Virus record (IMG/VR): IMGVR_UViG_3300045988_098233
Location: 6,748 to 70,747 of that record
Direction: 5' to 3' (one strand)
DNA length: 64,000 bases
From: a virus
Positions 2,303-36,168 of this stretch are shown one piece after another. Numbering within the stretch: the stretch's first letter is position 1; the number at the start of each line of letters is the position of its first letter. Under the pieces are notes generated by a model that made no database searches, had not been told where the DNA came from, and saw nothing but the letters and a program-made list of their open reading frames with translations. A program made the translations under genes and the position numbers.

Positions 2303-2379
2303 AAAAAGCGGGGCCGACCGCCGGGTTTCCCCGTCAGTCAGCCCCGCTCGGCTCATCCTATCCAACGCTTAGGATAAGG
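2303..2379 (-). promoter_or_regulatory. conserved-loop hairpin (loop UAAGCGUU) plus intrinsic terminator, copy C
   Basis: Minus sense: CCUUAUCC-UAAGCGUU-GGAUAGG (2379-2357), then GCGGGGC...GCCCCGC hairpin plus U5 (2347-2303). Confidence 0.55.
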
Positions 2380-2396
2380 CGTTTTTGGTGTGTCCC

Positions 2397-3524
2397 TTAC
2401 TCGGCGGTGACTTCCAGAACCGCCTGCGCGGTGTACTTGGCCGCCCCCTCGGCGGGATACTGGATGGCGATGCTCCCGGTGCCCTGAGTACTCCCGGCGG
2501 TCACAATGCCGTCCTTGGAGACCGTGGTCCCGGTAGCAGTCCCGGCGGTCACGGTATACTTCAGCAGGCTTGCGGGAGAGGGCGTCACCAGTTCCCCGTT
2601 TTTCATAACCAGCTTGGCATTCACGGGGGCAGTGCCGCTGACGGCCACGCTCACCACGCCGCCGATGACGGCGATCCCCGCTACCTCATCGCTTTCCTCG
2701 TCGGGAACCAGCACCACGTAGGCGGAAGTGCCCATGCCGCCGCAAGCGTCGCACTCGGCGGAGATCACATCAGCGTCCTCGTTGATGGCGCGGCCGGTAA
2801 TGGTGGTGGTGTCGTAGTTGGACTGGTCGCCGGTGGTGTTGGCCCCTTCGGGGTTCAGATACAGGCGGGGTACGATCAGGTAGGCCCAGCCCCAGCGGGT
2901 GCCCTTGTTCTTGCCGGACACGTTCTGGTATACGGCGATCTGCGCGGTGAAGTGGACGATGCGGCCATTAAAGGCGCTGTGCACCACGCCCACCTGAGCC
3001 GCGGGCTTCCGGGCAAAGTACCACACCTTGTAACTCTTGCCGCTCTCAGCGGTGAAGCCGGTAATGGCGCCGGTGGCGGGGTCAATGGGATAAGGAACGC
3101 CGCCCACAGAGTAGGAGGAAGCCGCGCCCACCTCCTGCACGTAGCAGAAAATGGAGGAATAGCCGTACTGGGCCACAGGCACCAGCTTACTCACGTCGGC
3201 CTTCAGGGAAGTGCCCGTGGCCTCCACCGTCTGACAGACGGGAGAAACGGCGTTGTAGCTCACGGTGCCGCCCACAGCCATCATCTTGCTCATCAGGTCG
3301 AAGTCCGCGCGGGTGAAGTTCACCTGCGTGTCGGAATCGCTTGCAATGATGGTGGCGATGCCGTTGCCCAGACCGGCCCGCAGAGGGTCGATGTTGCCGG
3401 AGAACTGGATGTTACCGGTGGAGAACTTGTCGCTCTGGCTCAGAACCTCGCCGGTAACAGGGTCCTGAAGCTGTGCGGAGCAAATGCCCTTCGGGTAGAG
3501 TCTCTTGTCAGTAAAAGTGATCAT
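2397..3524 (-). CDS. putative major tail protein with C-terminal Ig-like domain
   Basis: 375 aa. The C-terminal ~90 aa are Big_2-like (VSVAVSGTAPVNAKL...KYTVTAGTATGTTVSKDGIVTAGSTQGTGSIAIQY). Lies two genes upstream of the tape measure. Confidence 0.5.
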   Translation of the reverse strand: MITFTDKRLYPKGICSAQLQDPVTGEVLSQSDKFSTGNIQFSGNIDPLRAGLGNGIATIIASDSDTQVNFTRADFDLMSKMMAVGGTVSYNAVSPVCQTVEATGTSLKADVSKLVPVAQYGYSSIFCYVQEVGAASSYSVGGVPYPIDPATGAITGFTAESGKSYKVWYFARKPAAQVGVVHSAFNGRIVHFTAQIAVYQNVSGKNKGTRWGWAYLIVPRLYLNPEGANTTGDQSNYDTTTITGRAINEDADVISAECDACGGMGTSAYVVLVPDEESDEVAGIAVIGGVVSVAVSGTAPVNAKLVMKNGELVTPSPASLLKYTVTAGTATGTTVSKDGIVTAGSTQGTGSIAIQYPAEGAAKYTAQAVLEVTAE

Positions 3525-3541
3525 GTCTGTTCACACTCCTT

Positions 3542-4345
3542 TTAAATTTGTTCCTTGTTGTTGGTAAATTGACTCAGCGGGGTTACGGCCCCCGCATCCT
3601 CCCGCTCCCGGTCATAGAAAAGGTGGGGTACAGGGTTCCCGCCCTTCCACTTCACGCCGTTGCCCTCCGAAATGCCGCAGATCAGATAATCTGCCGCCCG
3701 CTGGATGGCTTCCTGACGCCGTTTCAGCTTTAAAATAGGCCATTCGTCCATCTCCGTTTCCTCGCATCCGGTAAACAGGGCGATGGAGGAAAGCAGACCG
3801 GCTGGGTCCCGTCGCAGCTTCGGCCCGTTTCTCCGGGCCAGCTCCGCCTCCGCTTCCAACAGGTCCGGGTTGGCGTCCTCATCCGTCAACTCAATGCCGT
3901 TCTGATAGGCCAGAATAGCCCTGAGCCGCTGGAATTGTACCGGGGTAATGGTGATTTCTTCCTCGCCGTTCCATGTAAAGCATATCCCCTTTAAATCCAT
4001 TGTGTTTTCAGGTGAAAGTTTCACATGAAACAGGCGGATGCGGTCCGAAAGGCTCCGGCCCTCCCCCAGCCGCAGCGCCAGCGCCAAAAACGCCAGCGCC
4101 CGGTTAAAAAGGCCCACAGGTTCCTCCCCCCGCTCCATGCTTTCCAGATCCATGACCCAATAGGCTGTCAGCAGAGGCATGACCGCATAGCGCACAGGGA
4201 GCGCCTGCTGGATCACGTCAATGGCGGGTCTCGCCCGCTCAAATTCCTCCCGCTCACAGACCCGGATGGGCCATAGGGTCAGTCCGGCGGTTTCTACGGG
4301 TTCGTAACGGTCCGCCGCCCGCTTGATATTCCGTGAGAGTTCCAT
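3542..4345 (-). CDS. hypothetical virion-module protein
   Basis: 267-aa ORF, tightly packed in the minus operon. No family recognised. Confidence 0.5.
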   Translation of the reverse strand: MELSRNIKRAADRYEPVETAGLTLWPIRVCEREEFERARPAIDVIQQALPVRYAVMPLLTAYWVMDLESMERGEEPVGLFNRALAFLALALRLGEGRSLSDRIRLFHVKLSPENTMDLKGICFTWNGEEEITITPVQFQRLRAILAYQNGIELTDEDANPDLLEAEAELARRNGPKLRRDPAGLLSSIALFTGCEETEMDEWPILKLKRRQEAIQRAADYLICGISEGNGVKWKGGNPVPHLFYDREREDAGAVTPLSQFTNNKEQI

Positions 4346-4376
4346 TCCTTTAATTCATCCTCTCCAATATCTGAAA

Positions 4377-4679
4377 TTAAATGGCAATGCCTGCGGTGGC
4401 AAACAGCGCCGCAATACAGGCCCCGGCGATCAGCCAGATCACTTTGTCCACGAGGCTGTCCCACCGTTTGGCGGACTTCCCTTCCATCTCCGTCATTTTC
4501 TCATCGATCCGGCTCACCTTTGTCCCCATTTCTTCCTGCTTGGTTGCCATTACCTCTACGCTGGCAGTCAGTTTGATCAGCGCCTGCTGATCCCGCTCCA
4601 CATCGGCCATGCGGTGATTCAGAGATTTGATCTCGTGCTCGTGGCCCTCTATTTTTACGGCTGCTTCTTCCATGTTCAT
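4377..4679 (-). CDS. XhlA-like coiled-coil membrane protein (lysis-associated family)
   Basis: 100 aa. Long coiled coil followed by a single C-terminal TM (VIWLIAGACIAALFATAGIAI), the architecture of PBSX XhlA. Confidence 0.55.
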   Translation of the reverse strand: MNMEEAAVKIEGHEHEIKSLNHRMADVERDQQALIKLTASVEVMATKQEEMGTKVSRIDEKMTEMEGKSAKRWDSLVDKVIWLIAGACIAALFATAGIAI

Positions 4680-4703
4680 GGTGGCTGTCCTCCCGTTGTG
4701 AAT

Positions 4704-5408
4704 TTAGTAGTCCTCAATGGTGTCCCCCATGGCGACTTCGCTTTCCGCCCAATGGATGCTCATTTTCAGTTCCCGGCCTACCACCGTGCCCGTCTGGTCA
4801 TAGACCGGGCGGCTGCCGTTGTCTGCGTGGGCGATACGGGAGAAGTCGCACACGCCGATCCCCGCTATGTTCACCCCGTTCAGTGCTTCGATGATGCACT
4901 GCTCCATATCGTAGGCTCTGGAATATGCCTCCGTTTTCGTGGTGGTCTCCTGATTCACGTTGCAGGCAATTACAAAGGTAATGCCGATCCGCGCGTCAAA
5001 GGGCGTCTGTGAAAAAATGCGGCCCAGATAGCACTTGATCATGCTTTTCGCCTCCGTCTGGGCTTCCCCCCAGAACTTCTGGGCGTAAAGGCGATACCCT
5101 TTTGGGTGCTTGCGGCGCTGGGTGCTGCTGTCTACCACAGGCTCGTTCCCGTCAAAAAGAAGGCTCTGCTTTTCCTTGGCCGTGGGCAGCCGCTCTCCCA
5201 GCGGCTTGGCCCCGTCATGCCATAGATATTTCATCAGCCGGACACGGGGGCGGGTGTTGTCATCCACCGGCTCGTAGCCGTCCGGCAGCGGCAGGTCCAT
5301 CAGATAGGTCAACAGCTTGTGGGGGATCTCCTCCGCCCCACGGAAGGTCAGAAAACCGGTCTGTACCCGCTCGTAGGGATAGGTGGGGCTGTGGAAGGCC
5401 GGATTCAT
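4704..5408 (-). CDS. hypothetical virion-module protein
   Basis: 234-aa ORF overlapping the upstream gene by 4 nt. Confidence 0.5.
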   Translation of the reverse strand: MNPAFHSPTYPYERVQTGFLTFRGAEEIPHKLLTYLMDLPLPDGYEPVDDNTRPRVRLMKYLWHDGAKPLGERLPTAKEKQSLLFDGNEPVVDSSTQRRKHPKGYRLYAQKFWGEAQTEAKSMIKCYLGRIFSQTPFDARIGITFVIACNVNQETTTKTEAYSRAYDMEQCIIEALNGVNIAGIGVCDFSRIAHADNGSRPVYDQTGTVVGRELKMSIHWAESEVAMGDTIEDY

Positions 5409-5977
5409 TGTGCGCCGCCCTTCCGCTGCTGAAAGGCCGCGTCAAAGGCGCTCCGGGCCTCTTTCAGATCGTCCAGCGTCTTTTGCACCGCCTCCGGCGT
5501 CATGCTCTGCGCCGCAAGATCCTGAAACCGGCTCACGGGATCGTTCATGGCTTGCAGCATCCCGTAAATCTCCGTTTTCAGCATCTTTTCCAGATCACGG
5601 TAGTCCGCCAGCAGGTCAAAGGCTTTGTCCCGCAGCTCCGGCCCCTTCCCCTTCATGCGGTCGATCTGGTTGAAGATGTGACCTCCGGCCCACCGGTCAT
5701 AGTCATCGGCGGACATGAGGTAGGTTTCTCCCTCCACCGGCTCAAAGTCCGCTCCCAGATACAGCTTCACAAAGCCGCCCATGAGATACCGGCTTCTCCG
5801 CTCCACGTTCTCCTTGAAGTAGGGGAGCACCTGTCCCCCCTCTACCCGGACCTCCATCCGATCAAAGCACCGTCCGGCGCACTCCGCCGCAAACGCCGCC
5901 TTTTCCATCAGGGGTACATAGTCTCTGGCTGCCAGCAGCCCTTCCTCCGTTAGTTTTTTCCATTCCATATACGTCAT
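5405..5977 (-). CDS. hypothetical virion-module protein
   Basis: 190-aa ORF, operon packing. Confidence 0.5.
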   Translation of the reverse strand: MTYMEWKKLTEEGLLAARDYVPLMEKAAFAAECAGRCFDRMEVRVEGGQVLPYFKENVERRSRYLMGGFVKLYLGADFEPVEGETYLMSADDYDRWAGGHIFNQIDRMKGKGPELRDKAFDLLADYRDLEKMLKTEIYGMLQAMNDPVSRFQDLAAQSMTPEAVQKTLDDLKEARSAFDAAFQQRKGGAQ

Positions 5978-5982
5978 TCCTT

Positions 5983-6180
5983 TCAGATTTTTTGGAATTT
6001 CTCACGGTCAATCCCCCGCAGGGGGCACACCGCCGCCTGCGGTGTATTCTCCCACTGCCCGGTCACGCCGCATAAATGCTGGTGTCCGCAGATGGGGAAT
6101 TTCTGCCCCGGCTGCATCTCACACAGCAAGCTCACCGTTCCGGGCCGCTTGTAGGCGTATGGACACTTCTCTGCCATCAC
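5983..6180 (-). CDS. small Cys-rich hypothetical protein
   Basis: 65 aa, several Cys/His, 4-nt overlap with the upstream gene. Confidence 0.4.
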   Translation of the reverse strand: MMAEKCPYAYKRPGTVSLLCEMQPGQKFPICGHQHLCGVTGQWENTPQAAVCPLRGIDREKFQKI

Positions 6181-7499
6181 AAGCCCTCCAATTCGATCTC
6201 CGCGCTGACGCTTTCACCCTCGCATCTGGCCGTTACCGTCAGCGGTTTCGGGCTGTTCCCCCAGCACCTCACTGTCAACCGGTTCCCATTGACACTCACG
6301 CTGTAAGAACCCTCTGCGGCTCCCTCATAGGTCCACTCCACTGCCGCGTCCTGGCGAACGCCGCCGATAAACAGCGCCGCCTCCAAGGTCTCTACATCGT
6401 AGGGGGCCATATACCGGGGAACCTCGTTCAAAAACCGTACCGCCGGTGTTTTTGCCGCCGATGCCTCCACCGTCACGGCGAAGGTCCCGCCGTAAGTCCG
6501 GTTTTGGTCCAGCACCGCCGTGATTTGGCAGGTGCCCTCGCCTACCGCTGTTACCACGCCTTTGCTGTCCACCGTGGCCACGTTGGTGTCGCTGGAACAC
6601 CATACATAGCCGATGGGGTGTTCCTCCGTGTTCTCCACCTCGGCCCCGTTCCGCCGGGAAGCAGCGGTGAATTGGAAGGCATCCCCCGCTGTCATGCGGG
6701 GCGCCCCGGTGACAAATACCGCCCAGGAGAAGTTCTTCCCCCCTGCCACCTTCGCTTCCAGATCGTCGATCTCGTGGTTCGGCTCCTGCATCCGGGCGTT
6801 GAAATACAGCAGGTGTGTGCTTTCATCGTCCCCGGTGAACTCCTGCGTCACGTCGGAGTAGCCCGTGATCTGGTAGGCCCGCCGCCCTAAGATCAGGCGG
6901 CTGTTCTGGTCTAACTGCTCCGTGTTGGCGTTTCGCTGGCAGATAATGTTGAAATATCCCTGCATGATGAGGGTCATTTCCTGAAAATCGTTGGCTGTGG
7001 CCTGCGCCAAGGACTTTTCCACAAGGATCGGTTCTTCTCGGATGTTCCCGTACCAGTCCAGAAACCGCCACACGGCGTTGCACCGCCGCATGATCCCGGT
7101 CCCTATTGCGCTGGACAGGTTGGATGGGTTCGTCACCAGCCAGTAGGAACCCATGGTCTCCACCTTGGCCCCCTCCGGGATGTAGTTCACTCCGGCGTCC
7201 GCCACCAGAAATGCCTTCTGATCATCGGTTTTCCGGGTGAGGCTGACGCCTTGCTTGGTGGTGTCGGAAAGCCGGATACGCTTTGTGCTCCACCGGTAGA
7301 AGTCACCGGAAACCAAGCCCTGCATCCGGGCCGTCACAAAGTCCGTGGCGTAAGGAGCCATTTCCTCCACAAACCGGGCCGTGGCATCCGCAAAATACTG
7401 CCGCTTCCGATCCCGATATTGAGGCGGTGCGTTGGTTGCCCTGCCGCTCCCGCCGCTCAGTAGGCCGATGTTTTTCATGCCGTGCTTGGCGTTCGCCAT
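6177..7499 (-). CDS. structural protein with Big_2-type Ig-like repeats
   Basis: 440 aa. Big_2 signature WCSSDTNVATVDSKGVVTAVGEGTCQITAVL plus a second Ig-like repeat at the C-terminus. Confidence 0.55.
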   Translation of the reverse strand: MANAKHGMKNIGLLSGGSGRATNAPPQYRDRKRQYFADATARFVEEMAPYATDFVTARMQGLVSGDFYRWSTKRIRLSDTTKQGVSLTRKTDDQKAFLVADAGVNYIPEGAKVETMGSYWLVTNPSNLSSAIGTGIMRRCNAVWRFLDWYGNIREEPILVEKSLAQATANDFQEMTLIMQGYFNIICQRNANTEQLDQNSRLILGRRAYQITGYSDVTQEFTGDDESTHLLYFNARMQEPNHEIDDLEAKVAGGKNFSWAVFVTGAPRMTAGDAFQFTAASRRNGAEVENTEEHPIGYVWCSSDTNVATVDSKGVVTAVGEGTCQITAVLDQNRTYGGTFAVTVEASAAKTPAVRFLNEVPRYMAPYDVETLEAALFIGGVRQDAAVEWTYEGAAEGSYSVSVNGNRLTVRCWGNSPKPLTVTARCEGESVSAEIELEGL

Positions 7500-7514
7500 A
7501 TGCGCCCCCTCCTC

Positions 7515-8228
7515 TCAGATCAGCTCCATCTGCCGCACCGACCGGCGGAACGCCGTTGCGTATAGGCAGTCCTGCTCATACTTCCGCAATTCCTGATTCA
7601 ACAGCCCCCGGTTTTGCAGTTTCTTCTTGTTGCCCTTTTCCATGTACTGCGGCTCGTTAGGTGGGTTAAAGCTCCGGTCATGATCCTTGGGCGCGTCGCC
7701 GAGCCAGTTGCGGAAAAACCGCTCGTCCCATACGGAAGCTACGCACAAGCCCAACAGCCGCTTCTGCTCCGCTGTCAGGTCATGGGCAAAGGCCCCGTCG
7801 GTGTAGAAGTCCATTTCGTACTGCAATCCCGCGTCCATCTGGGGAGGGAAGGTCACGGTCCCGGTCTCCGGGTCATACACCGCCTCTCCATACGGTACTA
7901 AGAGTACGGACTCGTCCGGCTGCTCCGCCCGCTGTGCGCAGGAGAATAATTCGTAGCCGGTCATCCCCGTCTCCACCTTCGTCTCTTTCGCAATGCTCTC
8001 CAAGGTGGAGACCCATGCGCTGTCTGCGTAGGCGGGTTCCGTCAGTCCCTCTTTTAGGTAAGCCACCATCTCAGGGGGACGGTTGAATACCGGGATCGCG
8101 TTCTTCATGTAAAGGCTCATCCGCCGCAGAAACCGTGCGGGGCTTTCCGCCGCCTGATCCGTCAGTCTCACGTCATCAATAAAAACCATGGCATGGTCCG
8201 AAATGATCTCGCTCCAACTCGTTCCCAT
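7515..8228 (-). CDS. hypothetical protein (head-tail joining region)
   Basis: 237-aa ORF. Assigned by position only. Confidence 0.45.
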   Translation of the reverse strand: MGTSWSEIISDHAMVFIDDVRLTDQAAESPARFLRRMSLYMKNAIPVFNRPPEMVAYLKEGLTEPAYADSAWVSTLESIAKETKVETGMTGYELFSCAQRAEQPDESVLLVPYGEAVYDPETGTVTFPPQMDAGLQYEMDFYTDGAFAHDLTAEQKRLLGLCVASVWDERFFRNWLGDAPKDHDRSFNPPNEPQYMEKGNKKKLQNRGLLNQELRKYEQDCLYATAFRRSVRQMELI

Positions 8229-8240
8229 AGCCGCCCCTCC

Positions 8241-8801
8241 TTACGTTTTTGGAATGTATACCAGCACGGTCCCTCCCGGTTCCGCGTCATTCATGGCAAT
8301 GCCGTCTGCGTTGGCGGAGTCCGTCCCCGCCCCGGTCGCCAGAATTACGTTCCTTGGGTAAAGGTCCGCAGCCGGATAAAGTGATGCGTCCGGCAGCAGT
8401 GCCGTGGCCAGTGCCCCCGCTGAGTCGCTCCTGACCCCGGTTCCGGGATACAGCGCCGTGCTTGGGTACAGGCTTGCGCTGGGATACAGCCCTGCTTCCA
8501 GCTTCACATAGTCTCCGATGTTGATTTTCTTGCCGCCGGGGTTTACGGGAAATTCCCGAAAGGTCCCGGCCGCGCATAGGTAGTGGGCTTCCCCGCCGCC
8601 TTGCTTCGGCAGCGTTACCCGCTGTACGGCGTTGTATTTCACGCCCGCTATTTTCACGTTTGCCTGCCATTGGGGCAAACTTCCCGGATCTCCGCCGATG
8701 TAAATGAAATCTCCGTTCCCCGTCCCGGTGGACAGGGGGATGGATAAACGCCCCACGCCGCTGTATGTCTTGTGGTTTACAATGACGGTTGGACTTGGCA
8801 T
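8241..8801 (-). CDS. hypothetical protein with LYP(S/G/A) repeats
   Basis: 186 aa. AAAGGAG RBS upstream of ATG 8801. Repeated LYPSASLYPSTALYPG / LYPAADLYP motifs. Confidence 0.5.
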   Translation of the reverse strand: MPSPTVIVNHKTYSGVGRLSIPLSTGTGNGDFIYIGGDPGSLPQWQANVKIAGVKYNAVQRVTLPKQGGGEAHYLCAAGTFREFPVNPGGKKINIGDYVKLEAGLYPSASLYPSTALYPGTGVRSDSAGALATALLPDASLYPAADLYPRNVILATGAGTDSANADGIAMNDAEPGGTVLVYIPKT

Positions 8802-9122
8802 GAAGCGTTCTCCTTTCTGTTATTCCCCCTTCCCCCCCCAAGGTGGGGTTTCCAAAGGGGAAAGCACCAAAGCGCCGCCAGTGGCGGATAAAGCGAGGTG
8901 CTTTCGAGGAAATGGCACGATTGGCAGCCCATCAGGGCCGGGAATCGTATAGCCATGACGGTGTTAGGGCCGCAGCCCTCGCCCTTTGTGCCGTTGGGGG
9001 TCCAGGGCGAAGTCGGAACGCCCTGGTGCTTTTCTTCCGGGGTGTGGGGCGGGTTCTTTTCCAGAAAAGAATGCGCCCCACGTCCATGACATGGGAATGT
9101 CCCATTGCGGGAGCAAGCCCAT
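8802..9122 (-). ncRNA. hairpin-rich structured intergenic element, copy 1 (unknown class)
   Basis: 321 nt with no ORF. Homologous to 11803-12041. Shared blocks are ACGGCACAAAGGG(G)CG and CCCCUUUGGRAACCCC, and the hairpins keep their loops while the stems differ. Confidence 0.5.
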
Positions 9123-9623: not shown

Positions 9624-9686
9624 GTTTCCGGTCTCCTTTTAAAAATTTTCGACCCCATCAACCGTTTTATATGGGGGTTGGATTTG

Positions 9687-10351: not shown

Positions 10352-10381
10352 TGCTCTGTTCCCCCCTTCGGTTTAAAACTC

Positions 10382-11784: not shown

Positions 11785-11802
11785 GATTTGTTCTCCTTTC
11801 AA

Positions 11803-12314: not shown

Positions 12315-12329
12315 TTCCTCCTGTTGACC

Positions 12330-17077: not shown

Positions 17078-17170
17078 AAAAAAAGCGCTGCCCACGCCGG
17101 TCATTCCGGCGTCAGCAACGCTTTGCTCCTCCCGCTCACCGCTTAGAGCGGGGTGCTCTGTTCACTTTTT
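17078..17170 (-). promoter_or_regulatory. conserved-loop hairpin (loop UAAGCGGU) plus intrinsic terminator, copy A
   Basis: Minus sense: GAAAAAGUGAACAGAG, hairpin CCCGCUC-UAAGCGGU-GAGCGGG (17152-17131), AGGAGCAAAGCGUUGCUGA, long hairpin plus U7 (17123-17078). Confidence 0.55.
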
Positions 17171-22179: not shown

Positions 22180-23540
22180 ACAGCTAAAGCCGGGGCGATT
22201 CTCGGTTCACCGACTACCGCCTCCCGTTTCTGGGGGGGCTTACGCAGTCTCCTCGAGCGTATAGGTTCGGGCGTGTCCCGCCCTACCTTGTGTAGTGGCT
22301 ACGCCAACAGGCGCAAGCCCTCATTCAAAATGTTCTTTGCGGCGTTCACGTCCCTATCATGGACAGCACCGCACTTGGGGCAAGTCCATTCCCGGACGGA
22401 CAGGTCTTTTGTTCCGGGCCACTGTGCGCCGCAAGCGGAGCAAAGCTGACTGGACGGAAAGAAACGATCGACCGTGACCACCTGTTTTCCGTACAACGCC
22501 GCCTTGTACTCCAACTGCCGCCGGAACTCGCTCCAACTTGCATCAGAGATTGCCTTTGCCAGTTTGTGGTTCTTGACCATGTTCTTGGGAACTAAGTCCT
22601 CAATCGCAATCAAGTCATAAGTTCGCACAAGGATGGTGGACAGTTTATGGAGCATATCCTGCCGCTGATTGGCAACGTGTTCGTGGAGCCGTGCTACTTG
22701 TATCCTCGCCTTTTCCCGGCGGTTACTGCCCTTTGATTTTCGGGACAACTGCCGCTGGAGTTTGGCAAGTTTCTTCTGGCTCCGGGTCAGGTATTTATGG
22801 TTCGGATACTCTACGCCATCGGAGGTGATAGCAAATGCTTTCAGGCCCATGTCGATACCGGCCACCGCGCCGGTAGTGGGTAGCAGATTCATCTCCACAT
22901 CGGCGCAGCATAAAGAAACAAAGTATTTCCCACTGGAAGTGCGGGACACGGTAGCAGTCAAGATACGACCCTCCACCTTCTTGGAGATACGGCATTTTAC
23001 CCGCCCCAACTTGGGGAGTCGGACAGCCTTCTCCAAGACCTTTATGTTGGCATTAACACATCTGCTTGTATAGCTTTGTTTATAGCTTTTCTTACTCTTG
23101 AAACGCGGATAGCCAAACCGGTTGTCTCCCTCTTTGATGCTACGGAAGAAGTTCTGGAAGGCTTTATCTAAATTCTGCACCGCAGATTGCAGGGCGGTGG
23201 AATCCACCTCTTTCAGCCATAGCAGAGTTTTTTTCAGCATTGGAAGGTCGTTTCTCTGCTGGTAGCGAGAAGGTGAGTGCCCTGTATCCTTGTATTGGCT
23301 CTGCCACTGGTCGAGAAAGTAGTTATACACAAACCGACAGCAGCCGAAGGTTTTATTTATTTGACTCTTTTGCTGTGCGTTCGGATAAATGCGAAATTTA
23401 TAACTGTATCCATCCACCGTCCTCTCCCCCCTTCTGTGAGCGAGATACTATAAAGATGGTTAGTTTATTTGCTTGTGTATGCGTCTTATAGTCCCGTAGC
23501 AAAAGAACGTGTGTACGACGCTTTCCTAAAAAAAACAGAG
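22180..23540 (-). mobile_element. IS200/IS605-family element carrying only tnpB (IS1341-like); ends approximate
   Basis: tnpB plus a structured 3' flank (22182-22298, omega/reRNA position). Visibly lower GC than the flanks. Inserted between the early and late operons. Confidence 0.6.
22299..23417 (-). CDS. tnpB: TnpB RNA-guided nuclease (IS605 OrfB family)
   Basis: 372 aa. RuvC contexts GIDMG, AIEDL and [10 protein letters not shown]. Zinc finger CSACG...CPKCG. No tnpA nearby. Confidence 0.9.
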
Positions 23541-23571
23541 AGTGAAAAGACTTTATTGCTTCTCACTCTCT
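23528..23571 (-). terminator. intrinsic terminator of the early operon
   Basis: 13-bp hairpin AGAGAGUGAGAAG...CUUUUCACUCUCU followed by U8 on the minus strand. Confidence 0.6.
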
Positions 23572-23628
23572 ATTATTTCACAAGGTTTTCCCGATTTGGT
23601 AAACTTTAGTAGCCACTTGAAAATTTTT

Positions 23629-26195: not shown

Positions 26196-27082
26196 TCTTC
26201 GAACCCTCCAAGAACTTCTTGCCCCGGCAGAACGCCGTCCTCCATCCACCAGTGAAATACATCCACGCCGGAGCGCCAAGAGTATGCCTCCATGCCTCGT
26301 TCGATCCGTATTATCAACATTTTGTCAAACGAACGTATCCACGCTGCCTTGATCTCTGGATAGCGGGCAAATTCCATGATTCTGGTTTTGGATGCCATGG
26401 GACAGCCAATGCAGCCCACCCGGCAGAATCCCTCGCAGTACAGCGGATTCATGGATATTTTTTCTACGCCGACGTAATCCCAAATATCTGCCGCTTGCCA
26501 GTCCACAATGGGGTTCACCACCCGCTTCCCCTTGAGCTGGCACGTTTCAAATAATCGGCGATCCTCGTCGTTATCGTTTAATAGGATCAGTTTGTTTTGT
26601 GGCTTAGACGTTAATACCTCTAAGCCGCCACGGCGTTTCCTGGCCGTGGATTCAGCCCAGCGAACACCCGTAGCGATAAACCGATCCTTGCCTCCCCCCT
26701 CTTTAAGGACGGCGCAACAGTACCGCATCAGGCGTGTGGGCGGCATGAGCTTCTTTTGAATCAGTTTCCACATGGTCATACGGGAGCCGTCCGGCTGGAC
26801 GTGCTTGTCCACGTCGCACTTGATGCCCTTGCATTCCAGCTGATAAAACGTATCGTACACATGGCGCACCGTCTCTGGAGCGTCCGCCGTGGTCAGGCTG
26901 TGCAATACCTCAAATGGGATGCCGCTGGCCCTTGCCAGATGCAACAGCACATCGCTGTCCTTCCCGCCGGAGTAGGTGATCACTAACGGTTTTTCAAAAA
27001 GCCGCAGGCTCATATCCGATGCCGCTTTCAGCCGCTCGATGGCGGTCTGCTCCAAGTCGCTCATAAACTCTCCAATCTCCAA
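26192..27082 (-). CDS. PAPS-reductase-family (PP-loop ATP pyrophosphatase) protein
   Basis: 296 aa. PP-loop VITYSGGKDSDV, RYCCAVLKE, C-terminal Cys cluster CEGFCRVGCIGCP. Confidence 0.8.
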   Translation of the reverse strand: MEIGEFMSDLEQTAIERLKAASDMSLRLFEKPLVITYSGGKDSDVLLHLARASGIPFEVLHSLTTADAPETVRHVYDTFYQLECKGIKCDVDKHVQPDGSRMTMWKLIQKKLMPPTRLMRYCCAVLKEGGGKDRFIATGVRWAESTARKRRGGLEVLTSKPQNKLILLNDNDEDRRLFETCQLKGKRVVNPIVDWQAADIWDYVGVEKISMNPLYCEGFCRVGCIGCPMASKTRIMEFARYPEIKAAWIRSFDKMLIIRIERGMEAYSWRSGVDVFHWWMEDGVLPGQEVLGGFEE

Positions 27083-29813: not shown

Positions 29814-30088
29814 CGCTTTTCCTCCTGATACTTCGGGCAGTCCAAAACCTGCACCCGCTCCACCACTCCGTCCCGATCCATGCGGGATCTCCGCCGGACC
29901 TTCCAGCCGGGAACGTCCTCAAAGCGGACCTTTCCGCTTTTTTCGTCCACCCGGCTCCATTCACACTGCCCATAGGCCAGCTTGCAGGACCAACACTTGT
30001 GCAGACTGTTGGAGGGGTCCTCCTTCTCCGCCTTCGTGCTGTATCTCCGCATACAGCTTGCCAGCGTAAAATTACCTGCCATCCCCAT
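29810..30088 (-). CDS. hypothetical protein
   Basis: 92-aa ORF. Confidence 0.45.
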   Translation of the reverse strand: MGMAGNFTLASCMRRYSTKAEKEDPSNSLHKCWSCKLAYGQCEWSRVDEKSGKVRFEDVPGWKVRRRSRMDRDGVVERVQVLDCPKYQEEKR

Positions 30089-30773
30089 CGGCCTTTCCCC
30101 GGAGATAGGCCATCACCTCATCCCGGCTGCGCCGCTGGGGCCGTACTGCATCCTTGAACCATTCCGGCGGCTTCACCGCCTCGGCTTCCGGTTTTGCTTC
30201 CGCCGCCGGCAGGGGCTTCTTCTCAGGCGCCGCCAGCTTCTCCGGCTCCGGCCCGGTGGCGATGCGCTGTACCAGCGCCCGAACCTCCGCAGGCAGGGCG
30301 TTGATCTCCTTCTCCCGGGCGGAAATAGCCCGGTAGCTGCGCTGGAAGTTGCTGGACACCACGCTATGCACCGTCTCCGTGTCCATCCGCGCCCACTCCC
30401 GCAGGGTGTTGGGACTGCCCACGATCCGCCGCACGATAGGTGGGAACTTCTCAAATTCCTCCTCCGCACCGTACAAGCCGTTGCGGATGGCTCTTGCCAC
30501 CAGACCCCACGCCTCTGCCTCCGTCATTTCCGGTTTTGCCGTCAGCAGGCGAAGTTTGGCCTTTACCTGCCCGATGGTGGGCGGGAAGCCCTTTTCGTCG
30601 CTTTCGATTACGCTTTTTACCGCCGCCGCCACCAGTGCCACCTCGTCATGGGCAAACATATCCGCCCACAGTTTGATGGCGTTGCGCATATCCGGCCCGG
30701 TGGTGCTGCTGTAAAACCGGGGATAGGCCGCCGTCAGAATATCCATGATGATGCCTGTCTCCTGTCTGGTCAT
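30072..30773 (-). CDS. putative helicase loader (SPP1 G39P-like)
   Basis: Start trimmed to MTRQETGIIMDILTAAYPRF (ATGA overlap). Position after the replisome organiser. Confidence 0.45.
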   Translation of the reverse strand: MTRQETGIIMDILTAAYPRFYSSTTGPDMRNAIKLWADMFAHDEVALVAAAVKSVIESDEKGFPPTIGQVKAKLRLLTAKPEMTEAEAWGLVARAIRNGLYGAEEEFEKFPPIVRRIVGSPNTLREWARMDTETVHSVVSSNFQRSYRAISAREKEINALPAEVRALVQRIATGPEPEKLAAPEKKPLPAAEAKPEAEAVKPPEWFKDAVRPQRRSRDEVMAYLRGKADGDGR

Positions 30774-31639
30774 GTTGTGCGGCCCTCCTCCGCGTCCATC
30801 TCCGCCGCCAGCTCCGTCCAGCTTTTCCGGGGCTTGTCCGTCCGGGATGCCGCCGGGGCGGACTTTCCTTTCCCGCTGTCCCGGCCCTCCCATGTGAGGA
30901 ACTTCTGCTTCCAGTTCTTCACCGGATTCCCCTTGCTGTCCCGCCACGAGCGGCCCTGCGCGTCCGGGGTGTTAAAATACTCAAAAAACCGACGGGGGTC
31001 CACCGTGCTCTGCCGGGACGCGGCGTAGGCTTCCACCTCTTCCAGCGTGGGCGGTACGAATTTCACCGCCGTCCGCTTTCCGCTCTCCGGTGCCTTTGGC
31101 TCACTGGGGGCACCGCCCCCCATATCTTCTGAATGTAATGAAGAAGATATATCTTCTATATCTACTTCTCTTTCTTCTTCTGAAACAGCGACAGGTAGCG
31201 ACTGGTCGGCATGGCGGTCGAGCGATGTGTCAGACGATTTTTCAATCAGCCGCTTTTGGCTTGCCCGCCGCTTCGCCTGATAAATCCGGTCCCGCTCCTT
31301 CTTTTTCTCGTAAGAATCTAACGTCTGGTGCTTCCCCCAATTTGGGATCGTGATCACATCGTCTACAATCTCGATCATGTCGAACTGCTCAAAGGTCCGA
31401 AGGGCCATCCGTACAAGGCCAATGTCCCGCCGGAAGATGGACGCCAGCATTTCATCCGTGTACGCAATGCGGTTGTTCAGAATAAACACGCCGCTGTTGT
31501 TCTGCTTCCCGGCCAGCACCAGCAATTTGAACCAGATCACGATGATGCTGTCCGCACTTGGCATGGATTCGATCATCAAAACCTTTTCATCGTCAAAAAT
31601 GTCCGTGGTAATCTTGATCCACTTCACGTCACTTGCCAT
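30770..31639 (-). CDS. phage replisome organiser (Phage_rep_org_N) with DnaD-like C-domain
   Basis: MASDVKWIKITTDIFDDEKVLMIESMPSADSIIVIWFKLLVLAGKQNNSG... is the characteristic N-domain. Confidence 0.75.
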   Translation of the reverse strand: MASDVKWIKITTDIFDDEKVLMIESMPSADSIIVIWFKLLVLAGKQNNSGVFILNNRIAYTDEMLASIFRRDIGLVRMALRTFEQFDMIEIVDDVITIPNWGKHQTLDSYEKKKERDRIYQAKRRASQKRLIEKSSDTSLDRHADQSLPVAVSEEEREVDIEDISSSLHSEDMGGGAPSEPKAPESGKRTAVKFVPPTLEEVEAYAASRQSTVDPRRFFEYFNTPDAQGRSWRDSKGNPVKNWKQKFLTWEGRDSGKGKSAPAASRTDKPRKSWTELAAEMDAEEGRTT

Positions 31640-31657
31640 GGCTTCGCTTCATCCTTC

Positions 31658-32158
31658 CTAAATCTGCGGTACATAATCGTAGGGTTCGTCCTCTTCGGGC
31701 TGTTCCCACGGCAAAACGGCGTCCTCATGACTGTCAAGGGAACCCGCCTGACTGCCGCTGTGTTCCATGGGCTTCGCCGGTTCGGAGACGGGCGTTTTCC
31801 CGCTTCCAGCCGCCAGCAGTTCCAGCACCGCTCCCATCACCGCCTGAGGAGCCACAAACTCCGCGTGAAGCTCGCTCCACTCCTTCTGTTCCCCGTCACG
31901 GGTGGTGTAGCTCCGGGTTTTCCACACGCCGCACACCAGAACGGCATCTCCCTTGTCCAGACACGCCGCCATGCGGGTCACGTCATCGTCCCCCACGGCG
32001 GACACGTTCATGAACTCGCCCTTGGCGTACTTCATGCCAAATTCCGCCTTCGGCGTTCCCTTGGCTGTGGTTCCGGTTTTGACTTCACGGGTGACGGTGC
32101 CGGCACACATCATGTACCGGCTCCCGTCCTCCTCCCGCGTCTTAATGGAGATCAGCAT
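31658..32158 (-). CDS. ssb: single-stranded DNA-binding protein (divergent)
   Basis: 166 aa. OB-fold-like N-part, acidic C-terminal tip EEDEPYDYVPQI. Position next to RecT. Confidence 0.5.
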   Translation of the reverse strand: MLISIKTREEDGSRYMMCAGTVTREVKTGTTAKGTPKAEFGMKYAKGEFMNVSAVGDDDVTRMAACLDKGDAVLVCGVWKTRSYTTRDGEQKEWSELHAEFVAPQAVMGAVLELLAAGSGKTPVSEPAKPMEHSGSQAGSLDSHEDAVLPWEQPEEDEPYDYVPQI

Positions 32159-32169
32159 GTCTCCTCACC

Positions 32170-33162
32170 TCATTCCCCAAAGAAGGTGGCCGCATAGTCC
32201 ATGCCCTCGTCCTGCGCCTTCTGAGTGGCCTCTGCGGTCTTTTCGACCTTGGGGGGTGTAACCATACCGGATTCGCTCTCCACAGTCTCCTGATGGGCTT
32301 CCACAGCCGCAGGCGCGGTCTCCACCACCTCTCCGGTAGATGCCACCGTGCGCTCCGGCATAGGCATATCCGGGATCATGCCCTCGTCCTCGGCGCTGGC
32401 TTCCTCCATGAGCTGGACCTTGACCTCCGGGGACAGGGGCGCGTAGCCGCTGTTCAGCAGCTGCCGCAGAATCGTCTTGCGGCACATCCGGTCCTGCCCA
32501 CCGTTGGGATCGTACCAGGGGGAACCGTTCAGCAGTTTTTCCACGTCCTTGGGGTTCATTTCCCCGCTCTGCATGGCCTTGAACTTCTCATAGCTGAACG
32601 CCTTGGAGTACCGGTCCGCATGGCGCAGGAGCCGGTCCATGGGCCAGTATTCAAAGCGGAAAGTGCCGTCCTTCAGCTCGTAGTAGCCGTAGTAGCCGAT
32701 AATGGGCTTGCTCTGCCGTTCCTCGTCGCTCTCGTACTTGGCAAGGTTCACGATGGGCTTACCGGTCCGACGGCTCCGCCCCTCGATCTCGCCCTCACGA
32801 ATGTCCGTGCAGTCAATGTCTGCATAAAACCCGGTGGACATGGCAAGCTGGATGTAGCCCTTGTAGCCCAAAATGTACGTTGCAGTAGTCCCATAGGGCA
32901 CCACATAGTAGCCGTGGCCGAAGATCAGGCCCATGCCCTCGCCCCGAAGCGCCGCCGCCACAATGGTGCTGGGTTCACAGTTTTTCAGCTGTTCACTGGC
33001 ATTCACGGCGGAGATCAGCGTGGAGGTCAGCCGCGCCGCCGCCTTGTCGCTCCGCAGAGCGCTCTGGATCATCTTCTGCATACTGGGGGCCGCGATAGCC
33101 ATGGAAAACGTGGGCTTGTTGTCCCGTTGGGCCTGGGGCGCAAAGCTGTTTGTTGCCTTCAT
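32170..33162 (-). CDS. recT: RecT-family single-strand annealing protein
   Basis: 330 aa. RecT pattern (ISAVNASEQLKNCEPSTIVAAALRGEGMGL...GYYVVPYG...GYKGYIQL). Confidence 0.8.
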   Translation of the reverse strand: MKATNSFAPQAQRDNKPTFSMAIAAPSMQKMIQSALRSDKAAARLTSTLISAVNASEQLKNCEPSTIVAAALRGEGMGLIFGHGYYVVPYGTTATYILGYKGYIQLAMSTGFYADIDCTDIREGEIEGRSRRTGKPIVNLAKYESDEERQSKPIIGYYGYYELKDGTFRFEYWPMDRLLRHADRYSKAFSYEKFKAMQSGEMNPKDVEKLLNGSPWYDPNGGQDRMCRKTILRQLLNSGYAPLSPEVKVQLMEEASAEDEGMIPDMPMPERTVASTGEVVETAPAAVEAHQETVESESGMVTPPKVEKTAEATQKAQDEGMDYAATFFGE

Positions 33163-33181
33163 GTCAAAATTCCTCCCTTAT

Positions 33182-34099
33182 TCAGTCCGCGCGGCCAAAG
33201 GCAATGCCGTTGGCCAGCATATAATCCCGCAGTCCGTTCAGCTGCTCCACAGTGCCTGTCACCCGGAACGAAAGCGTAATGAGAGGCGGTTCCATTGCGG
33301 CTTTCACCGCCGCTTTTACCGGCTCCGAAACGGACGGGCTTGTCTGAATGGCTCTGGCCGCTTCCACGACGGCCTGCAACCGCTCCGCTTTGGCGGCTTC
33401 CTCCGCCGCCCGCGCAGCCTCGGCCTGCTGTCTGCGCTGTTCCTGTTCCGCCTTCCGCTGTTCCTCGATCTCCTTCACCCGCTTGAGCGCCTGATCCTTT
33501 TTCAGCACCGTGGGCAGATCGTGACACTGCTTGTACTCTTCCAGCAAGGTTGTCTCGAACTCGCTGTTCAGCCCGCGGATGGCGGCAATACTGCTGTCGC
33601 ACTTGCTGATCGCCACTAAAATGTCCTTGTGGGCCTGTTCCTCGGAATAGGTGGCGTTGCCCCACCGCTTGTCCAGAACCGCTTCCCACGGGAGAAATTC
33701 CGCAAGCTCTCCGATGCGCTCATCAAAAAAGGTCCGGATAGCGTCCAGCTTCTCCGTGCGGCGCCGCTCGTCGAAGGCTTTGATCTGGCCGTCCAGATTG
33801 GCGGCAGATTCGTCGCACAGGGCTGTCAGTGCCTTGCACTTCCCCTCAAAGGGTGCGTAGCTTGCCAGCGCCGCCGCCTTTGCCATCTTGCGGCACTCGT
33901 CGATGCGTGCGGCCACGGAGCGGATGCTGGCCCGGTACTTCTTTGCCGCGCCGATAGCCTCCTCCGTCACCACCATGCCCCGGTATGGAGCCAGATTCTC
34001 TTCCAGCCACTCCTGACACTCCGCAAAGTTGGCGGAGATGTTAAACTCCTTCAGCGGAGTAAGATCCGTGGTAATGGCAAATTCCATTGCGCTGCTCAT
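33182..34099 (-). CDS. DUF1351-family protein
   Basis: 305 aa, coiled-coil, typical partner of RecT in siphophage early regions. Confidence 0.55.
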   Translation of the reverse strand: MSSAMEFAITTDLTPLKEFNISANFAECQEWLEENLAPYRGMVVTEEAIGAAKKYRASIRSVAARIDECRKMAKAAALASYAPFEGKCKALTALCDESAANLDGQIKAFDERRRTEKLDAIRTFFDERIGELAEFLPWEAVLDKRWGNATYSEEQAHKDILVAISKCDSSIAAIRGLNSEFETTLLEEYKQCHDLPTVLKKDQALKRVKEIEEQRKAEQEQRRQQAEAARAAEEAAKAERLQAVVEAARAIQTSPSVSEPVKAAVKAAMEPPLITLSFRVTGTVEQLNGLRDYMLANGIAFGRAD

Positions 34100-34344
34100 G
34101 CGTCCGCGTCCTCCTTTTCCCCGGTGTCATAGGCCGTGATCTCCTTCAGCAGCGGCATGATCCGCTCGTCCACACGGCTCTCCGGCACGTTGATCTCCAC
34201 CACCATGGCCCGCTTGTCTCCGCCCTGCGTGGGAGCCATCACCTTGTCCCCCACCGTCAGGGGCAGTGCCGTCCGGTAGGTAAATGCGTTCCCTGCGTAT
34301 GCCTTGTGCAGGGGCTTATAATAGCGAATGTTTACCAGCATCAT
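34096..34344 (-). CDS. hypothetical protein
   Basis: 82-aa ORF. Confidence 0.45.
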   Translation of the reverse strand: MMLVNIRYYKPLHKAYAGNAFTYRTALPLTVGDKVMAPTQGGDKRAMVVEINVPESRVDERIMPLLKEITAYDTGEKEDADA

Positions 34345-34625
34345 GCCTGCGCCTCCTTGTCATCGTCCTCTTCTGTGCAGGGAATGATCGACAGAAAAAG
34401 TGCCAAAACTGGGAATTTTCTGCAAATACGCTTGACCTCAAGCAATGTCCGGCGAATCAGATTCACCAGCACATTTGCGTTGGAGGTGGAAATGGCGCTG
34501 CATACCTGTGAATTCGCATCGTCCACAGCTACGCAGATAAACGCCGCAGGGGTTTTGTCCATCAAAACCTCGCCGGTTTTGATGTTCCTCACCGTGATGT
34601 GAACCTCGTTCTTTTCCATATTCAT
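34341..34625 (-). CDS. hypothetical protein
   Basis: 94-aa ORF. Confidence 0.45.
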   Translation of the reverse strand: MNMEKNEVHITVRNIKTGEVLMDKTPAAFICVAVDDANSQVCSAISTSNANVLVNLIRRTLLEVKRICRKFPVLALFLSIIPCTEEDDDKEAQA

Positions 34626-34664
34626 GTCTCCTCGTCTTTCTTAAATTTTTCGGAGTTGTGCGCC

Positions 34665-35312
34665 TTACAAAATCAAAGTCTGGGCGGGCATCGTCCCCGC
34701 CTCCACATGGTCCCAAAAGGCCGTCTCCTGTTCCAGCAGCCATTTCAGGTCCGCCTCGTGCTCCCGCCGCTCAAAGTCATAGCGGCGCAGTGTGATGTTG
34801 CCGGACAGATCATAGAGCGCCGCATAGAGCACGGCGAAGTCATACCCGGTGGCAAGCAGCTGGTGAAGGATCTGCGTGAAATAGTTCTCAGGAACCTGAT
34901 CCCGCCATTTCGCCCAGTCAATCCCCCGGCTCACCGTCGAGGTTTTGATCTCCAAAATACCCTTCCGTCCGGTGTCCGTCTCCGTCAGTTCTCCATCCAG
35001 CGTGGCAAAAAGCCATGGGCGGTCGCTCTGGTAGAGAATGTCATAGGCACCGTAGTAAAGCTCGTAGCCGGGATACTGGGCCATGAAGAAGTCCCGGATG
35101 GCCGGTTCCATTCGCCGCCCCAGCTCCACGGCCTCGTTGCCGCCGAGATCAGGCGCGGCTTGCGCCCCGGTTTTCTCCTTCCACAGCGTCAGCGCCGTTT
35201 TCCATGGGCTTCGCCCAATGGCCGCCGCCGCCTCGCTGCCGCCGATGCCACGGCACCGTCCTGTCAGCCATTGCGGCCGGTCCGGGAAAGTCAGTCGTAC
35301 CAACTCACCCAT
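34665..35312 (-). CDS. YqaJ-type viral recombinase exonuclease
   Basis: 215 aa. GIGGSEAAAAIGRSPWKTALTLWKEKTG N-motif and a PD-(D/E)XK core (LEIKT). Confidence 0.8.
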   Translation of the reverse strand: MGELVRLTFPDRPQWLTGRCRGIGGSEAAAAIGRSPWKTALTLWKEKTGAQAAPDLGGNEAVELGRRMEPAIRDFFMAQYPGYELYYGAYDILYQSDRPWLFATLDGELTETDTGRKGILEIKTSTVSRGIDWAKWRDQVPENYFTQILHQLLATGYDFAVLYAALYDLSGNITLRRYDFERREHEADLKWLLEQETAFWDHVEAGTMPAQTLIL

Positions 35313-36045
35313 TTTTCAGTTCCTCCCAATACCCCATCACGGTTCTGGCATAATCGCTGTGCCCCGGATGGCCGCTGTTGTAGGCCGTCAAGGCGTTCTC
35401 TACGTCATACCGGCTCAAAAGCTCCGCCATGTAGTCGCAGGCCACCCGGAAATTTCCAAAGGGGTCCATCAGGTCTGTGACCCCCAGCCGCTCCATCCGG
35501 GCCTTATGCCACCGGGGCTGTACCTGGCAGTAGCCCCAACTGGCTCCGCCGTCCCCCTTCACGTTCCGGTAGCCGGTCTCCTTGCGGATGATCGCCAGCA
35601 TCAGCGTGTACTCCACGCCGCTTTCCTCGCAGGCCGCCCGGAGATAGCTTTGCAGGTCTCCGTCCAGCGGAACATCCGCCCGGAAGTAGCCGCTGTCAAA
35701 CAGCGCCGCTTCGATCTTCTCGTTCTCGTAGTCCTCCTGAACCGGCGGGGCTGTCTCCGGATCCAGCTCCTGCCAGAGGACAAGTGAGGCGTACTCCACC
35801 GCCGGTGTCTCGTCCCCGGCCAGCCGTCCCGCCGTCACGGTGGGCGCCTCCGGCTCCGGCTTCCCGGTCTCCCGCGTCAGCCACAGTGCTGCCAGCACCA
35901 GCGCCACAGACACCCACAGCAGAACCGCTCTGCGGATGGCCTTCCGCCTCCGCTCCGCAGCTTCCCGCCGTGCCACGTGAAGGGCGTTTTCCAAGTGGGC
36001 TTCCCACGCGGCCTCCGCCTCGTATTCCTCAAAGGTTTTCATCAA
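35305..36045 (-). CDS. membrane-anchored lytic transglycosylase (SLT domain)
   Basis: 246 aa. N-terminal TM. SLT motif LMLAIIRKETGYRN...GYCQV. Confidence 0.75.
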   Translation of the reverse strand: MMKTFEEYEAEAAWEAHLENALHVARREAAERRRKAIRRAVLLWVSVALVLAALWLTRETGKPEPEAPTVTAGRLAGDETPAVEYASLVLWQELDPETAPPVQEDYENEKIEAALFDSGYFRADVPLDGDLQSYLRAACEESGVEYTLMLAIIRKETGYRNVKGDGGASWGYCQVQPRWHKARMERLGVTDLMDPFGNFRVACDYMAELLSRYDVENALTAYNSGHPGHSDYARTVMGYWEELKNG

Positions 36046-36064
36046 ATTTCCGTCTCCTTACAGC

Positions 36065-36168
36065 AAAAACAAAAAGCGCCGCCGAATAGACACCGGTCTC
36101 CCGGTTCCATCAGCAACGCTCTGCTCCTCTGCCCCAACGCTTAGGGACAGGCATCTCATTCACTTTTC
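36065..36168 (-). promoter_or_regulatory. conserved-loop hairpin (loop UAAGCGUU) plus intrinsic terminator, copy B
   Basis: Minus sense: GGAAAAGUGAAUGAGAUG, hairpin CUGUCCC-UAAGCGUU-GGGGCAG (36150-36129), AGGAGCAGAGCGUUGCUGA, long hairpin plus U-run (36120-36065). Confidence 0.55.

Follow-up and report, generated by a model that had tools for sequence, protein, structure and literature searches.

The 64-kilobase (kb) window of gut phage DNA analysed here, which covers positions 6,748 to 70,747 of the 70.7-kb virus record IMGVR_UViG_3300045988_098233, carries three copies of an RNA element, all on the minus strand, in which two small hairpins bearing the same hexaloop are fused to a long intrinsic terminator. 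We propose, with a probability of roughly 0.55, that a 46-amino-acid (aa) phage protein encoded just upstream of one copy is a probably dimeric RNA-binding antiterminator that would act at all three sites with a logic like that of the ANTAR proteins. This proposal is built on the sequence of the phage and its relatives.

The elements lie at about 2378-2303 (copy A), 17152-17078 (copy B) and 36150-36065 (copy C), and each is composed of four parts: a first hairpin (P1), a 3-nucleotide (nt) linker (AKG), a second hairpin (P2) and the terminator. P1 has 7 base pairs (bp) and the loop UAAGCGKU (U-AAGCGK-U) in all three window copies, whilst P2 is a mini-hairpin of 4 bp (AGCN/NGCU in the window copies) closed by the hexaloop RAGCGK. 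The hexaloop is the same on both hairpins, being flanked in P1 by U.U or U.G and therefore formally part of an 8-nt loop. The 5′ strand of the terminator starts within the P2 loop and continues through the 3′ strand of P2, and the terminator stem is followed by a U-run. Because the terminator takes its 5′ strand from the P2 loop and the 3′ half of P2, the two structures are mutually exclusive.

In copy A, P1 (CUUAUCC-UAAGCGUU-GGAUAGG, 2357-2378) is followed by P2 (AGCC-GAGCGG-GGCU, 2340-2353, -6.5 kcal/mol), the putative antiterminator arm whose pairs covary in relatives, and by a terminator at 2303-2347 (hairpin 2347-2308, UUUUU at 2307-2303; -36 to -40 kcal/mol). Copy B has P1 at 17131-17152 (CCCGCUC-UAAGCGGU-GAGCGGG), P2 at 17114-17127 (AGCA-AAGCGU-UGCU, -3.4 kcal/mol) and a terminator overlapping P2 at 17078-17121 (hairpin 17121-17085, UUUUUUU at 17084-17078; -30 to -34 kcal/mol). 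Copy C has P1 at 36129-36150 (CUGUCCC-UAAGCGUU-GGGGCAG), in whose orthologues a U.G pair has become U-A or C-G, P2 at 36112-36125 (AGCA-GAGCGU-UGCU, -3.4 kcal/mol) and an overlapping terminator at 36065-36119 (hairpin 36119-36076, UUUUUGUUUUU at 36075-36065; -27 to -33 kcal/mol). An initial annotation had placed hairpins and terminators at these positions on the minus strand, and reading all three sites agrees with it. The same annotation described two shared sequence blocks, GAAAAGUGAAYRGAG (GAAAAGUGAA...) and AGGAGCARAGCGUUGCUGA; both exist, but they are common to copies B and C (17 kb and 36 kb) rather than to A and B, copy A having the homologous AUGAGCCGAGCGGGGCUGA instead. The small alternative hairpin that it had noticed is real and is P2, the second conserved hairpin, with the same loop sequence as P1.

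Units of about 100 nt around the three sites fold at -51 to -54 kcal/mol, with z-scores of -3.7 to -6.5 against shuffled sequences. With P2 at only -3.4 to -6.5 kcal/mol and the terminators at -33 to -40 kcal/mol, the default state should be termination. In the phage part of the window, no compact terminator hairpin of the minus strand is stronger than those of copies A, B and C. A covariance model of 48 nt was built from P1 and P2, the two small hairpins, and recovered copies C, A and B from the window at 71.2, 67.5 and 63.2 bits (E 1e-18 to 2e-16); with filters off, the fourth-best match in the 64 kb reached only 15 bits. The bare 8-mer TAAGCGKT is non-significant by itself (5 observed vs 2.6 expected). 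A role as a small RNA (sRNA) that base-pairs through its loops was considered and dropped, as no complementary 8-mer occurs in same-strand transcripts and all TAAGCGKT matches lie on the minus strand. The idea that AAGCG in the P1 loop might form a pseudoknot with CGCUU at the terminator's 3′ base was likewise dropped, since members with a GAGAGG loop 2 end in ...CCCCUUUU and lack the complement of loop 1.

A pattern spanning both loops occurs at only 3 sites in the 70.7-kb record. In IMG/VR the same two-loop pattern was found in more than 111 stretches, mostly orthologues of copies A, B and C in close relatives, with a fourth motif type from another phage group. A loose DNA pattern run against genome contigs gave mostly chance matches in unrelated phyla, the real ones being 10 model-confirmed sites at 6 loci; model-confirmed copies are found in prophages of Acutalibacter, Ruminococcus and Oscillospiraceae genomes. 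Further copies were found in loci reached via the gene of the small protein. The total is about 40 distinct sequences from phages and prophages of gut Clostridia, all of which keep both loops, with the code R1-A2-G3-C4-G5-K6 (position 1 A or G; position 4 C, rarely A or U). In several of these phages, two or three separate terminators each have a copy. One relative (L096:1646-1750, IMGVR_UViG_3300045988_077100) carries a chimera of the P1 and P2 of copy C with the inner terminator hairpin of copy B (GACGCCGGAAUGACCGGCGUGGGCAGCGC), which suggests recombination or gene conversion between paralogous copies in one phage genome.

Both hairpins covary. In the 39 distinct sequences found by pattern, paired cells amount to 99.3% against 63% in column shuffles, a percentage that is inflated because the pattern itself required pairing. 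Double-sided changes number 145 in this set (40 in shuffles), compensatory changes occur at 7/7 P1 pairs and 3/4 P2 pairs, and the covariation score falls from 0.96 to 0.09-0.21 when the partners are slid by 1-3 columns. Owing to the bias of the pattern set, the count was repeated on the 22 distinct sequences detected by the model in the region downstream of the protein gene, and these gave 99.2% paired vs 67% and a score of 0.83 vs 0.22. P2 occurs as AGCC/GGCU, AGCA/UGCU, ACCC/GGGU, AACC/GGUU, GACC/GGUC and GUCC/GGAC. Because its pairs vary in compensated forms, P2 is selected as a helix itself, over and above its part in the terminator. An automatic test recovered, in 32/40 members, a terminator stem in which the P2 loop and the 3′ strand of P2 are paired and which ends at a U-run; judged by eye, most failures came from the U-run finder halting at an internal T-run, and nearly all members fit. 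It is because loop 2 is conserved that terminators in unrelated phages share the end ...ACGCUUUUU. The covariance-model search of relatives that the initial annotation had called for thus found conservation and covariation in both P1 and P2, and the comparative evidence agrees with its claims of conserved, covarying RNA signals fused to terminators inside operons and of an alternative hairpin in competition with the terminator.

These data bear on another explanation, namely that the sites are constitutive, partly leaky terminators or 3′-end stabilisers that set expression ratios, such as much major tail protein and little tape measure, with the loops serving RNA processing or stability. All copies are indeed very strong terminators, copy A separates the presumed major tail gene from those of the chaperone and tape measure, a point at which expression is commonly reduced in phages, and Rfam files the related family gut-2 as an sRNA-type gene. 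However, such an explanation has no need for P2 to covary as an independent helix, for two identical loops or for the terminator base ...CGCUUUU in unrelated phages. Moreover, strong terminators that are never overridden would be costly before scaffold, capsid, tape-measure and replication genes. We consider this explanation unlikely.

The initial annotation held that the element matches no known one, and Rfam at its gathering thresholds does report only transfer RNAs (tRNAs) in the window, with no match at A, B or C. In a sensitive search, though, copy A aligned end to end with gut-2 (RF02990) at 26.2 bits (E 0.029) with both helices kept; copies B and C gave no match reported at E<=10, and none of the window copies attains the gut-2 gathering threshold of 39.8 bits. 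Within the same loop class, the highest-scoring relative (L145) reaches 43.2 bits against gut-2, with others at 39.7 (L292) and 37.9/34.4/30.6 (L130), and classic gut-2 copies from viral contigs score 41-58.7 bits. Since these ranges overlap, the two classes grade into each other. Judged by sequence, therefore, the window element is a divergent subclass of gut-2 that the Rfam model misses at threshold.

The classic gut-2 plan (P1 with AAUUGG, then GAAG, then GNCC with AAUUGG) resembles the window element in its P1 of about 7-8 bp with a hexaloop, its purine linker (GAAG/AAG/AGG) and its 4-bp P2 with the same hexaloop. Classic gut-2 also occurs in phages of gut bacteria, with a terminator that overlaps P2 directly after it and a homologue of the small protein before it. 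The loop differs, being RAGCGK here and AAUUGG (RAUNGR) in classic gut-2, as does the copy number, which is three in this phage vs one in the classic gut-2 phages checked. The family originates from a 2017 survey by Weinberg et al., whose main text does not discuss gut-2 (PMC5737381). Rfam assigns RF02990 no function. Searches of the full-text literature turned up neither work on the function of gut-2 RNA nor any on a phage dual-hairpin antiterminator protein, and no published mention of the overlap with a terminator or of a protein partner. The linkage to a candidate protein partner and the pairing of protein subfamily with loop type, described below, are new here.

The candidate partner is a 46-aa protein (MIQGTKYVSAKTLEAIEKALAHGDRVELIPVKDGVKVIRVRRDEIK) encoded at 36177-36317 on the minus strand behind an AAAGGAG ribosome-binding site, with its stop codon 26 nt before P1 of copy C. 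The initial annotation had looked for a partner among small helix-turn-helix (HTH) proteins at 36177-36573; the region stands, but the best candidate within it is this non-HTH protein (36317-36177) rather than the HTH protein (36573-36334). Classic gut-2 loci have, ending just before P1, a gene for a protein of about 42 aa (MTEKVICAIETALAQGHRVQLKQLKDGTIKIQVVFQKELKVN) plainly homologous to the 46-aa protein. The family has the near-invariant core G-[DE]-RVELIPVKDGVKVIRVRR-E-K and comprises 495 clusters at 50% identity in a library of 1.8 billion proteins from public metagenomes. It matches phrog_29211, annotated as "unknown function", at E = 6e-4 for the window protein, 6e-6 to 1e-5 for its relatives and 1e-12 for the classic gut-2 companion. 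No Pfam or NCBIfam model matched the small protein. An AlphaFold2 model consists of one helix and a beta-hairpin (predicted local distance difference test, pLDDT, 86).

Three variants of the family were seen besides. A metagenomic protein of 87 aa (P0115) is a natural tandem duplication of the small domain, and this fits a dimer model. Another of 129 aa (P0043) joins an Xre-HTH domain to the small domain, just as the HTH gene and the small gene are neighbours in the window. In a subgroup that includes phage Chenonceau (L329:4110-4139), L319 and L293, the small protein ends in ...ETRPG*, and the last codons together with the stop codon form a separate hairpin (CCCGCCCC-GGUUAG-GGGGCGG).

The gene of the small protein lies just upstream of a copy of the motif in essentially every motif-bearing phage examined: the window phage, D-type phages, prophages of Acutalibacter, Ruminococcus and Oscillospiraceae, and Flavonifractor phage Chenonceau. 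It was found in none of about 115 unrelated control loci, which held chance pattern matches. Conversely, the motif as defined by the strict pattern lies downstream on the same strand in 128/138 protein-bearing loci. The remaining 10 are made up of 3 gut-2-type loci that carry classic gut-2 instead, 2 with weaker model matches, 1 with a partial match, 3 with the motif elsewhere in the record and 1 that is a second, fragmentary match to the protein within a locus counted before. The cassette is found with unrelated capsid, portal and tail types, including a siphovirus-like type with Phage_cap_E, a type with a PF09950 capsid and a sheath, and an HK97-like type. Because a genome holds several RNA sites but one protein gene, the protein, if it is the partner, would have to act in trans.

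Depending on the locus, the stop codon of the small gene is separated from the motif by anything between about 1 and more than 1,100 nt, and this bears on attenuation coupled to translation, in which a ribosome at the upstream stop codon would decide between P1/P2 and the terminator and no trans-acting protein would be needed. The preceding gene's stop codon does lie 17-26 nt before P1 in each window copy, and in some relatives it lies only 1-12 nt before the motif. The wide range of distances elsewhere, and the fact that identical loops and the matching of subfamily to loop would be left unexplained, leave this explanation with hardly any chance of being right. Attenuation by a leader peptide was dropped from consideration outright, given the variable distance and given that copies A and B follow long genes.

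The matching of protein to loop is as follows. Proteins of the RVELIPVKDG type go with RAGCGK loops at about 40 distinct loci, whereas those of the HRVQLKQLKDG type (8 distinct loci) and the NNAEIKQ.KDG type (3 loci) go with RAUNGR loops. No cross combination of DRVELIPVKDGVKVIRV-type or HRVQLKQLKDGTIKVQIV-type proteins with the opposite loop class was seen among these loci, and the covariance model of the RAGCGK class found no match in gut-2-type genomes.

The RNA anatomy has its closest parallel in the targets of ANTAR proteins (EutV/eut, NasR/nasF, AmiR/amiE; PMC3369931, PMC8934654). There, as here, two hairpins have similar terminal loops, and in the experimentally proven substrates both are hexaloops and the second hairpin is exclusive with an intrinsic terminator (PMC3369931). 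A dimeric ANTAR protein on both loops prevents termination, with several sites per regulon, and it is to this that we liken our proposal. The systems differ in other respects. ANTAR loops require A at position 1 and G at position 4 in both hairpins (PMC3369931), and the loops here read R1-A2-G3-C4-G5-K6. The proposed partner, about 40 aa with a helix and a beta-hairpin, has no detectable relation to ANTAR, and there is no two-component input. Moreover, ANTAR sites lie in metabolic 5′ leaders and the sites here lie between phage genes.

This parallel also lends itself to another explanation, in which the RNA switch is real but its ligand is a host RNA-binding protein, such as an ANTAR regulator, or another phage factor, and the small protein merely travels along. 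The dual-hairpin architecture is that of the ANTAR proteins' own targets, no RNA-binding domain can be recognised in the small protein, and the place that its gene usually has among the head genes fits a role in morphogenesis. Against it, a six-frame search of the 70.7-kb phage record for the ANTAR domain (PF03861), which did not extend to the host, gave no match at E<=1, and the loops lack the A1/G4 signature, with C or A at position 4. Moreover, gene and motif are adjacent even in the early operon of the window phage and across unrelated structural genes, and the protein subfamily tracks the loop type. We regard another ligand as unlikely.

Several points nevertheless weigh against the small protein as the antiterminator. 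Besides lacking an identifiable RNA-binding domain, it returned no significant relative from fold and sequence searches against the PDB, and a helix and hairpin of 40 aa might equally be a DNA-binding or oligomerisation module, one member being fused to an HTH domain. Its usual position in the head module would also suit a morphogenesis protein. There is no obvious advantage in a conditional terminator placed before the genes whose products are needed most abundantly, scaffold and capsid. At least one other compact terminator of this gene array, a weaker one at about 23572-23528, has no motif; and, as stated above, the percentage of pairing in the pattern-found set is inflated. The motif-less terminator (23528-23572, minus strand; UAGAGAGUGAGAAG...CUUUUCACUCUCUG followed by U8, -18.9 kcal/mol) stands between gene blocks and may mark the end of an early/middle unit before the packaging genes.

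The RNA structure, its covariation, the overlap of P2 with the terminator, the linkage of gene and motif and the matching of subfamily to loop follow from the analysis itself. RNA binding by the 46-aa protein, its dimer stoichiometry, the antitermination outcome and the timing are matters that we infer, and the proposed antitermination would run as follows. The nascent RNA would form P1 and then the weak 4-bp P2, so that both present RAGCGK. With no binder, the far stabler terminator would capture the P2 loop and 3′ strand and transcription would stop. A probable dimer of the 46-aa protein, bound to both identical loops, would lock P2, block the terminator and let RNA polymerase read on. The small gene is the last of the immediate-early segment, just before copy C, and accumulation of its product would first open copy C, giving access to the genes for SLT, recombination and replication. 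The two other copies would be opened later: B, which follows the portal gene, and A, which precedes the genes of the tail chaperone and the tape measure.

The gene order in the window phage is as follows. A sigma-70-like promoter (TTGACA-17-TACTAT, 38014-38042, minus strand) is presumed, from a consensus scan and the gene content, to be the start of the early operon. It is followed by a cro-like gene, an antirepressor gene, a gene for a 105-aa protein, a gene for a 79-aa Xre-type HTH protein (36334-36573, minus strand; PF01381 match), the small gene and copy C, beyond which come SLT, a YqaJ-like nuclease and further early genes. Copy B follows a gene that was annotated as portal, an assignment supported by a match to phrog_2739. 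Copy A lies between the gene of a 375-aa protein without family match and genes leading into the tape measure, and the tape-measure gene is downstream of it. The label of major tail protein given to 2397-3524 was not confirmed by any Pfam, PHROG or annotated phage match, and the proteins encoded beside copies A and B (375 aa and 183 aa) had no informative annotated relatives.

Elsewhere the usual order is terminase, portal, minor capsid, small gene, (morons), motif with terminator, scaffold and major capsid. A second copy directly before the tape-measure gene, matching the position of copy A, is present in the Acutalibacter prophage and in Chenonceau, an inducible prophage of Flavonifractor plautii YL31 from the OMM12 consortium (PMC10197239). 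The Chenonceau record (ON453904.1), whose small gene is WAK79802.1, has the motif at 26221-26268 and a weaker copy at 31066-31113. As Chenonceau can be induced from F. plautii YL31, a cultured test system exists.

The phage-encoded control of readthrough proposed here, at terminators that separate temporal gene classes, recalls lambda N/nut and HK022 put, and copy C is placed like lambda tR1, after cro-like immediate-early genes. The initial annotation drew this analogy, which would make the element a processive signal of the nut or put type, with RNA polymerase modified once to ignore later terminators. The phage context and the presence of two hairpins, as in HK022 put, speak for it. However, N/nut and put act processively from promoter-proximal sites without terminator overlap, whereas each copy here is fused to and overlaps its own terminator, in direct structural competition with it. 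Processivity needs neither such overlap nor several copies, and in several phages two or three separate terminators each carry one. In addition, no sequence like boxA or boxB was seen and no nut or put family was matched in Rfam; lambda boxB is a single hairpin with a GNRA-like pentaloop and the element here has two hairpins. The finding of one overlapping element per terminator therefore points to local, ANTAR-like antitermination. The nut/put analogy appears to be the wrong model, and a processive signal is very unlikely.

The antiterminators of the CAT/RAT systems (BglG, SacY, LicT) resemble our proposal in that an antiterminator hairpin overlapping a terminator is held in place by a small dimeric RNA-binding module. 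RAT, which consists of one hairpin with internal loops, differs from the two-hairpin RNA here, and the CAT domain is all-beta, of about 55 aa and fused to phosphotransferase system (PTS) regulation domains; the small protein has no Pfam match to CAT.

A number of further features were observed around the motif and elsewhere in the window. At many otherwise unrelated head-module loci a 5′ flank TAAATAYYGYUY lies about 7-20 nt upstream of P1 (e.g. L286:2440-2466, L316:1775-1800 and L242:10275-10301); it is missing from all three window copies. One possibility is a -10-like promoter element from which a scaffold/capsid transcript would start with the motif at its 5′ end, another a conserved stop-codon context. 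Past the motif terminator and before the scaffold gene, L145:1798-1858 scores 35.5 bits against Rfam GP20-b (RF03003; threshold 36.2), and a hairpin GGUAAAACCCGC...GCGGnUUUUAU is common after the terminator in many loci (L145, L130, L316, L294 and others), so the scaffold leader may hold two stacked RNA elements. In an Oscillospiraceae metagenome-assembled genome (L234:2985-3186), the stretch from the small gene to the scaffold gene holds a phage tRNA gene (3043-3112) with a unit of motif and terminator on either side. In the window, a strong terminator-like hairpin (38469-38505, minus strand; 13 bp, U8) lies upstream of the early promoter and antisense within a cI-like repressor open reading frame (38103-38621, plus strand). 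Genes resembling tRNAs occur in 55168-56104, namely tRNA-Gly(CCC), tRNA-Gln(UUG) and a third detected by Rfam only (55818-55886). IMG/VR classes the virus record as having inverted terminal repeats.

More broadly, we give an even chance to the hypothesis that the proteins of PHROG 29211, of about 40 aa, are an unrecognised family of phage antiterminators whose dimers read paired gut-2-type hexaloops, in at least two orthogonal classes (RAGCGK and RAUNGR), and which, in many gut-Clostridia phages, control access to delayed-early, scaffold/capsid and tape-measure genes. The hypothesis is directly testable, given that the protein can be synthesised as a peptide, the RNA has 48 nt and the lysogen F. 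plautii YL31 with Chenonceau carries the module. To our knowledge, the only binders of dual hairpins that prevent termination are ANTAR and, by some accounts, HutP; if our proposal is true, it would add a very small, phage-borne member. Moreover, the natural variants resemble orthogonal protein-RNA pairs, which would make attractive compact switches for synthetic biology. It would also supply a mechanism and a partner for the orphan Rfam family gut-2, and a function for a protein family widespread in the gut virome. Temperate phages of Oscillospiraceae and related Clostridia would then time their delayed-early and late genes without an N or Q of the lambda type.

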